Part shown: positions 53,831-54,869 of the stretch, in pieces
How the letters are laid out: the number at the start of each line of letters is the position of its first letter
Numbering within the stretch: position 1 is the first letter of the stretch
Source: Eledone cirrhosa
Taxonomy: Eukaryota
Direction of reading: 5' to 3'
DNA length: 64,000 nt
NCBI GenBank assembly: GCA_964016885.1
Contig: OZ024740.1
Span: forward strand, 381,486,001-381,550,000
The notes under the pieces: model-generated
The model's input: the letters and a program-made list of their open reading frames with translations, nothing else
What the model was told of the DNA's origin: nothing
The model's database searches: none
Made by a program: the position numbers and the translations under genes

Positions 53831-54050
53831 TAAGTTGTAATGGAATTAAACGAAATTTCATTTCTCACTCTTAGTACGGCACTTACTTAAGAGTGAGAAA
53901 TGAAATTTCGTTTCATTCCATTACAACTTATCGTTTTCGGTACGCCTGGCCGACTGAACTCACTCGATATGCAAATTAGGCTGCCCAGCCGTTAATTTTC
54001 ATAAGGAAAGTATATACTTTCGAAAGTTCAACCATCTGGCAGAAGGGTAT

Positions 54051-54093
54051 ACGGTGCTGATGATAGCCAAGAAGCTTGAAACTAGTACATCGT
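54051..54093 (+). ncRNA. Minimal hammerhead ribozyme with palindromic stem III (ACTAGT)
   Basis: ACGGTG-CTGATGA-TAGC caagaa GCTT-GAAA-CTAG-TA-CATCGT. Confidence 0.85.
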
Positions 54094-54491
54094 TCCTGTG
54101 TCAGTGTTAAACAAAAAGGTGACGTGGTTGCCTTAACACCGTACGGCATAAATCAGGCTGTCCGTTTGTTTACAAACGGACAAAGCGAGCGTTATAATAA
54201 ACGTCCGCTAAACTGATACGTACATATATACATGTGTACCTGTATGTATATATATATATATGCATGCTACTGTACGTCTGTATACATATATGCATGTACG
54301 TATACTTACATTTAAGTAAGTGCCGTACTAAGAGTGAGAAATGAAATTTCGTTTCATTCCATTACAACTTATCGTTTTCTGTACGCCTGGCCGACTGAAC
54401 TCACTCGATATGCAAATTAGGCTGCTCAGCCGTTAATTTTCATAAGGAAAGTATATACTTTCGAACGTTCAACCATCTGGCAGAAGGGTAT

Positions 54492-54534
54492 ACGGTGCTG
54501 ATGATAGCTAAGAAGCTTGAAACTAGTACATCGT
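54492..54534 (+). ncRNA. Second copy of the minimal hammerhead
   Basis: Identical except one loop-II base; offset 441. Confidence 0.85.
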
Positions 54535-54869
54535 TCCTGTGTCAGTGTTGAACAAAAAGGTGACGTGGTTGCCTTAACACCGTACGGCATAAATCAGTCT
54601 GTCCGTTTGTTTACAAACGGACAAAGCGAGCGTTATAATAAACGTCCGCTAAACTGATACGTACATATATATATATATGTACCTGTATGTATATATATAT
54701 ATATATATATATATATATATGCATGCTACTGTACGTCTGTATACATATATGTATGTACGTATACATACATACTTACATTTATATTTATATATATATACAT
54801 AAATATATATATATATATATATATATATATATATATATATATATATATATATATATATACATACATACA

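Follow-up and report, generated by a model that had tools for sequence, protein, structure and literature searches.

A high-copy hammerhead retrozyme family in Eledone cirrhosa with a candidate snRNA-type promoter module and a Penelope-like insertion footprint

The window, that is, the whole 64,000-nt stretch of the Eledone cirrhosa genome analysed here (contig OZ024740.1, positions 381,486,001 to 381,550,000), contains a pair of tandem, hammerhead-bearing units and a short inverted arm, set between two (TA)n microsatellites (Table 1). TRF reports a period of 441 nt with 1.8 copies and 97% matches over 53888-54704, and a 300-nt core is 98% identical between the units. An earlier note on this DNA, made from its letters alone, had described two near-identical units at a spacing of 441 nt with (TA)n on both flanks; this description holds, with the correction that the second of the tandem units is incomplete and stops where the tail begins. 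The hammerhead cores (CTGATGA...GAAACTAGTA) lie at 54057-54087 and 54498-54528, with ACTAGT at 54081 and 54522. Two further landmarks of that note need rewording: a hairpin thought to be perfect around a tt loop is present at 54160 and 54601 but needs a 4-nt loop, and the palindrome AAAGTATATACTTT, found at 54007 and 54448, represents a TATA box rather than an RNA stem.

Table 1. Features of the retrozyme locus, in window coordinates
Feature	Position	Strand	Basis
(TA)n target microsatellite, left flank	53270-53830		
Short arm: exactly the 61-nt tail, minus-strand stretch from B to A, which meets (TA)n at fixed end A (...ACAACTTAT)	53831-53890	-	
Long arm, unit 1, whose unique part has 4 private changes	53888-54328	+	
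Octamer-like motif TATGCAAATTAG, unit 1; compare upstream of host U6, U6atac, MRP and tRNA-Sec genes	53968-53979	+	
TATA box GTATATAC inside the palindrome, unit 1; predicted start 31 nt downstream, ~54041	54010-54017	+	start: from host genes
Type I hammerhead 1; predicted cut after 54087	54051-54093	+	
Parts of hammerhead 1: stem I; core; stem II; palindromic stem III	54051-56/54088-93; 54057-63; 54064-77; 54081-86		
Predicted 441-nt monomer between both cut sites; includes the tail and the next unit's promoter motifs	54088-54528	+	
Central structured domain: long-range stem GUACGGCA/UGCCGUAC around two hairpins and a length-variable TA-rich hairpin	54141-54328	+	fold, compensatory changes
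Internal tail copy, site B (~54311) to site A (~54372)	54312-54372	+	
Incomplete unit 2, which stops in (TA)n at fixed end B (...CATACTTACATT)	54329-54780	+	
Second promoter-like module: octamer-like 54409-20, TCAG 54426-29, TATA 54451-58	54409-54458	+	
Type I hammerhead 2; predicted cut after 54528	54492-54534	+	
(TA)n right flank	54781-54867		

The two units differ at six positions in their unique part, and these variants are absent or nearly so in other copies. Judged by sequence, the insertion probably started out with two identical units, each of which has drifted by about 1% since. Given that one private change in unit 1 (54068) removes the top pair of stem II and another (53985) falls in TCAG, the window copy may be impaired; the locus is an ordinary, slightly decayed member of its family. 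Beyond the right (TA)n flank lies a SINE-like repeat (54870-55260, plus strand) that looks tRNA-derived; ARAGORN finds no tRNA there, nor any tRNA gene elsewhere in 50000-58000. The window also holds further hammerhead-like cores (CTGANGA...GAAAC) at 52229-52273 and 29732-29763, both on the plus strand, and long but broken LINE-type reverse transcriptase ORFs on the minus strand at 3929-7358 and 47446-50999.

Exact 19-mer searches place at least 27,904 hammerhead copies in the 3.0-Gb genome (17,853 matches to one hammerhead half of 19 nt and 10,051 to a stem I variant), with 0 for a reversed-pattern control, and a 20-nt word from the tail occurs 29,574 times. Tandem arrays reach 7-9 units. The earlier proposal of a retrozyme-like, multicopy family with tandem arrays is thereby borne out, and the locus is not single-copy. 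The 40 best matches to the unit are 97-100% identical, in keeping with the recent activity also proposed, and loci taken in order along C1 diverge by a median of 10% (range 0-21%), a spread which points to several subfamilies, some of them very young. Monomer length is not fixed within the family (422-538 nt in all 26 measured), and 5' truncation with a fixed 3' end is common among the copies. Contigs of runs X1-X3, which derive from one sample of unrecorded kind, contain the family and variants of it.

Tandem non-coding units (441 nt here, within the range of ~150-450 bp), each with a canonical type I hammerhead, are the marks of non-LTR retrozymes, and on its sequence the family is a member of this known class. 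In a tblastn and ORF scan of the sampled loci (L001-L090 and L201-L220, with L156-L185 outside the protein scan) we found no ORF, LTR-type ends or coding attachment, reading three direct joins to Penelope coding fragments, discussed below, as nested or chimeric. None of the sampled copies forms the end of a coding element, so the unit is not, as the earlier note had considered, always attached to a coding ORF. It is a new member of the class as far as the literature searched goes, which describes neither this family nor any U6-type motif in a retrozyme; Repbase/Dfam or article supplements may carry an unclassified entry.

The hammerhead pairs through stem I (ACGGUG/CAUCGU), stem II (a U.U followed by AGCU/AGCU) and stem III, a single A-U pair closed by CUAG. 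The earlier note had called it minimal. In the minimal hammerheads of metazoan Penelope-like elements, helix III is missing, helix II is long (7-8 bp) and an extra base precedes G10.1-C11.1 (PMC4209133). The present sequence has 6 bp in helix I, 4 bp and a U.U in helix II, and a helix III that is short and palindromic; by the definitions of that paper it is a canonical metazoan type I hammerhead. Rfam returns only sub-threshold HH9 matches (20.5 and 18.1 bits, where the gathering score is 52, with E values of 0.32 and 1.9), so the case against a chance motif rests on copy number and covariation. The microRNA matches from the Rfam search proved to be microsatellite artefacts.

We compared 101 distinct hammerhead contexts, in which the search patterns had partly fixed the core. 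The free positions, N7 and loop 2, vary, and stem II has U.U and A-U at its base in 101/101. The third pair of stem I is G.U in 45 contexts, A-U in 27, U.G in 24 and C-G in 2, so that it is paired in 98 of 101 and unpaired in 3; this covariation reflects few independent events, common to subfamilies. The long-range stem of the central domain is paired in 46/49 copies, with double changes from A-U to U-A and from C-G to U-A. At the level of sequence, the compensatory changes in both stems indicate selection on RNA structure. The fold of the 441-nt monomer is more stable than that of 100/100 shuffled sequences (z -5.4).

The earlier note had also predicted that the hammerhead would work as a dimer between tandem copies, and modelling agrees: for RNA spanning 54041-54545, a double-hammerhead fold lies 1.5 kcal/mol above the minimum, compared with 17.7 kcal/mol for two single hammerheads. 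The ensemble probability of the double fold is about 0.02 in that interval and 0 once the RNA extends to 54780. These folding energies are compatible with dimer cleavage and are no proof of it.

Each unit carries, upstream of its hammerhead, the octamer-like motif and, 41 nt further on, the TATA box (GTATATA), a spacing found in all 60 copies scored; the earlier note makes no mention of this promoter-like pair. In the host, 7 of 8 distinct Pol III-type upstream regions combine the same motif (0-1 mismatch) at -77 to -80 with GTATA[AT]A at -31/-32; the seven belong to three distinct U6 genes, U6atac, MRP and two tRNA-Sec genes, and 7SK has the TATA only. For this count, near-identical array copies of small-RNA genes were taken once, and motif-less U6 and U6atac matches were excluded as pseudogenes or interrupted genes (the L097 type with an insertion, L104, L105 and L119-L123). 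The motif is present in 0/9 upstream regions of five U1, three U2 and RNase P, genes that have in common a TCAGT near -57 and a TATA-like element (near -31 in U1/U2). A tRNA-Sec upstream region found once the pattern had been fixed matches at 14/14 letters. Within the window the joint octamer and TATA pattern has two matches, both of them the units, and it appears in 0/20,000 shuffles; in 376 kb of loci, the octamer-like motif alone has three matches beyond the scored elements, one of them an element fragment.

The resemblance to U6-type promoters is incomplete. The motif and a TATA at -31 are shared, but motif and TATA stand 45-47 nt apart in the host and 4-6 nt closer in the unit, and tight motif spacing has been reported in insects (PMC1761439). 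Nor is the transcript free of T-runs: T4 runs occur in 26/26 monomers and T6-T7 runs in many, upstream of end A, so Pol III would be expected to stop inside the monomer. The unit further has TCAGC at -56, to be compared with the TCAGT near -57 of host U1/U2, a weak likeness of four letters noticed after the fact. On balance, the sequence leans towards each unit holding a promoter of the snRNA-gene type, to be read by Pol II or else Pol III, from which transcription would start near 54041, 9 nt ahead of stem I.

Among the host genes, an octamer-like motif at about -78 with a TATA marks those for Pol III-type small RNAs (L091-L093, L118, L125 and L186-L187, as against the U1, U2 and RNase P loci L106-L108, L124 and L193-L200), and this layout could be used as a native definition of the U6 promoter. 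In the U6 array on C19 (L097-L103), a SINE-like insertion parts the octamer and TATA from the gene in some of the tandem copies.

Copies of the family pass into (TA)n from one of two fixed ends: site A, which reads ...CAACTTAT or a subfamily variant of it, and site B (...CATACTTACAT), which lies 61 nt upstream of A. Both are unrelated to the predicted ribozyme cut site. In a survey of 60 loci, chosen by their order along C1, diverging arms of which one had an A end and the other a B end were present in 29, two had B+B and none A+A, the rest running in a single direction or having no scored end; 42 of 49 A ends ran into (TA)n. Among 83 A arms, a set biased towards short arms by the inclusion of 20 loci picked for the lack of a listed hammerhead, 65 are long; another 13 break within 10 nt of site B on either side, 2 within the following 25 nt, and 3 are shorter. 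An inverted arm adjoins 12 of the 13 that break at B. The window fits this scheme: read on the opposite strand, 53831-53890 repeats 54312-54371 with a single mismatch. The earlier note had read this 60-bp inversion as a Penelope signature. Penelope-type integration into (TA)n stands, with the inverted segment being the exact tail between the fixed ends and not a random inversion. Pol III termination as the source of end A is ruled out by the T6-T7 runs upstream of A in many subfamilies.

One might ask whether the family is simply a repeat of minisatellite or MITE-like type, propagated as DNA, whose hammerhead arose by chance or is a fossil. Its inverted arms and tandem arrays would be at home there, as would an Rfam score so far under threshold. 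However, the arms are asymmetric (A against B), inversion points vary among copies, 5'-truncated copies keep fixed 3' ends, and the RNA stems carry compensatory changes, so that we consider this reading largely refuted and highly improbable.

Two fixed ends bounding a tail on one arm only, an inverted arm joined head to head, and an AT-rich target are together what is expected of an insertion mobilized by Penelope. Penelope insertions show an inverted arm and a one-end tail in the available text of PMC3846280 and PMC8557442, and a Penelope protein studied in vitro nicks both strands of AT-rich DNA and starts synthesis at two sites inside the RNA, between which the tail lies (PMC11167929). By analogy, the fixed ends of the Eledone family match the two internal start sites of that reverse transcriptase, which suggests a similar enzyme. 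Both sites may be primed at once, and the first cDNA would sometimes stall on reaching the second primer.

In the same study, hammerhead cutting was not needed for insertion and uncut RNA was the dominant substrate. This raises the possibility that a linear read-through multimer is copied here without being cut, the hammerhead serving mainly as RNA structure or cutting only rarely, and no abundant circle being formed. The position of the ends away from the cut site is as this would predict, as are the two uncut hammerheads covered by the window insertion and the low modelled probability of the dimer fold. Within-locus identity does not demonstrate a circular template: only in 10 of 25 loci do the units resemble one another more than they resemble those of the nearest other locus. 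On the other hand, arms of 5-7 near-identical units (0.25% divergence within L040 and 1.8% to the nearest other locus; 0.41% and 4.3% for L169) fit rolling copying of one circle, the catalytic core and palindromic stem III are retained across subfamilies about 10% apart, and retrozymes of mussel, coral and axolotl yield abundant circles (PMC7229834, available part). We regard copying of an uncut multimer as unlikely, if far from negligible.

It could also be that the unit is the detached pLTR of a coding Penelope element, transcribed by Pol II from a promoter of its own, of which the snRNA-like motifs are a part or to which they are incidental. Among 57 Xenopus retrozyme families, 24 are homologous to repeats, 21 of those being Penelope elements (bioRxiv 2026.07.22.740005); a palindromic TATA occurs in one Penelope pLTR in the available text of PMC3846280; and a tail with an inversion is a pLTR feature. 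The unit is moreover joined directly to Penelope coding fragments at L054, L074 and L085, through nesting or template switching in the latter two. Against this, the unit at L054 lies inside a Penelope ORF with a target duplication of about 9 bp, which marks a nested insertion, and no coding element sharing unit sequence was found in L001-L090 or L201-L220. Past site A the sequence ends or loops back to the next unit, and continuations other than (TA) differ from one another. Of 20 tail copies without a listed hammerhead nearby, all 20 proved to be units cut short by truncation and not the 3' end of a coding element. In the Penelope families checked, among them the family joined to the unit at L054 (30 loci), the hammerheads are different ones and nothing matches the unit; the unit's hammerhead is canonical, in contrast to most metazoan pLTR hammerheads (PMC4209133). 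The search, over a partial sample, yielded no autonomous Penelope element with an RT and GIY-YIG ORF between repeats of this kind and no pLTR homology. We therefore hold a detached pLTR to be decidedly improbable.

Potential helpers do exist, since Penelope copies are numerous: a single endonuclease query gave 54,595 first-look candidates genome-wide. Penelope fragments lie near about 12 of 60 loci, mostly across (TA)n, and unit fragments lie near 3 of 28 other loci of the L054-joined family, which fits shared (TA)n targets. A Penelope family that has a two-end architecture of its own and a tail of apparently ~90 nt occurs within 3 kb of a retrozyme at L038, L039, L040, L044, L050 and L074; it is a candidate helper or else shares the (TA)n target. 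At L054:4966-7704, part of the retrozyme/Penelope chimera was then duplicated in inverted orientation, suggesting that the composite was re-mobilised.

The window has Penelope-like sequences of its own. A partial-tandem element at 22700-28400 (plus strand) comprises a GIY-YIG fragment (22639-23178), an RT ORF (25146-26672) and a (TA)n end near 28385, and its pLTRs have minimal-type hammerheads at 24317 and 28284 and a sequence unrelated to the retrozyme unit. Another RT-to-endonuclease fragment lies at 62169-63251 (minus strand). Pfam did not recognise the Penelope ORFs of the window, which fall in the Atlas clusters HTH_animal/RVT_1 at 0.94-0.97.

Taken together, the family is a high-copy, non-coding tandem element whose type I hammerhead is conserved and whose two fixed ends lie 61 nt apart. 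We think it likely that it is transcribed from an snRNA-type promoter in each unit and copied into (TA)n by a Penelope-like enzyme, with a predicted self-cutting dimer and possible circles. Transcription would begin at the promoter within each unit and run on through the next, so that each monomer would carry the promoter for the next round. The RNA would cut itself as a hammerhead dimer into monomers, which may circularise. At a (TA)n target, a Penelope enzyme would introduce nicks in both strands and begin cDNA synthesis at the internal sites A and B; microhomology would then join the two cDNAs head to head, leaving diverging arms with the tail on one of them only. In the window, the A cDNA would have halted at B after 61 nt and the B cDNA would have covered about two units; as it ran through two hammerheads, its template would have been an uncut multimer or a circle.

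A more specific proposal, which we put forward tentatively and hold to be possible rather than probable, is that the family is a circular-RNA parasite that shares no sequence homology with its helper, has captured a host snRNA-gene promoter that sits close ahead of its ribozyme, is recognised through RNA structure at the two start sites and inserts by twin priming. If true, the family would amount to a SINE analogue for Penelope, in which circular permutation keeps an external promoter and each circle regenerates promoter-bearing tandem DNA.

With some 28,000 hammerheads or more, the family is a sizeable, recently active repeat of the Eledone cirrhosa genome. Two of its features are absent from the literature searched, namely a base-precise two-site Penelope footprint free of pLTR homology and a candidate promoter module of the host snRNA type. 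The transcription of animal retrozymes and the enzyme that copies them have, in the papers considered, been argued from co-occurrence and homology; thousands of young copies with a base-precise footprint and a candidate promoter make both questions testable on a 441-nt substrate.

The closest known systems are the animal non-LTR retrozymes described in the available part of PMC7229834, with which the Eledone family shares tandem units of the 150-450-bp class, a type I hammerhead, lack of coding capacity, low GC content and a predicted dimer requirement. A single-pair helix III with a palindromic tetraloop is found in axolotl HHR_Amex1 and a U.U at the base of helix II in HHR_Amex2; the Eledone copy differs in combining both weakening features in one copy of invertebrate type. 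Circles were demonstrated for the retrozymes of that study and are only predicted here; its available text describes no fixed Penelope tail ends, inversions or promoter (only T7, in legends). The proposal that retrozymes are non-autonomous dependants of Penelope has been made before (bioRxiv 2026.07.22.740005), on the basis of co-occurrence and pLTR homology and with no use of the words 'tail' or 'promoter', whereas our argument is built on an insertion footprint and no homologous pLTR was found in the loci sampled; in that work, cleavage was seen in only 1/9 dimers. Penelope-like elements themselves, in the accessible text of PMC3846280, PMC8557442 and PMC11167929, resemble the Eledone family in their diverging arms, one-end tail, AT-rich or microsatellite targets and two internal start sites, and differ in having a tail of 30-40 nt, where the Eledone unit has a tail of 61 nt, no ORF and the form of a closed loop. 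Finally, the hammerhead satellites of newt and schistosome have promoters of their own (PMC2220036, available part), of the snRNA-type Pol II kind in newt satellite 2 and for Pol III in the schistosome satellite. These tandem repeats, compared here by description only, are alike in joining a hammerhead to a promoter, and the Eledone motif is distinguished by its match to the upstream element of the host's own U6/tRNA-Sec-type genes.
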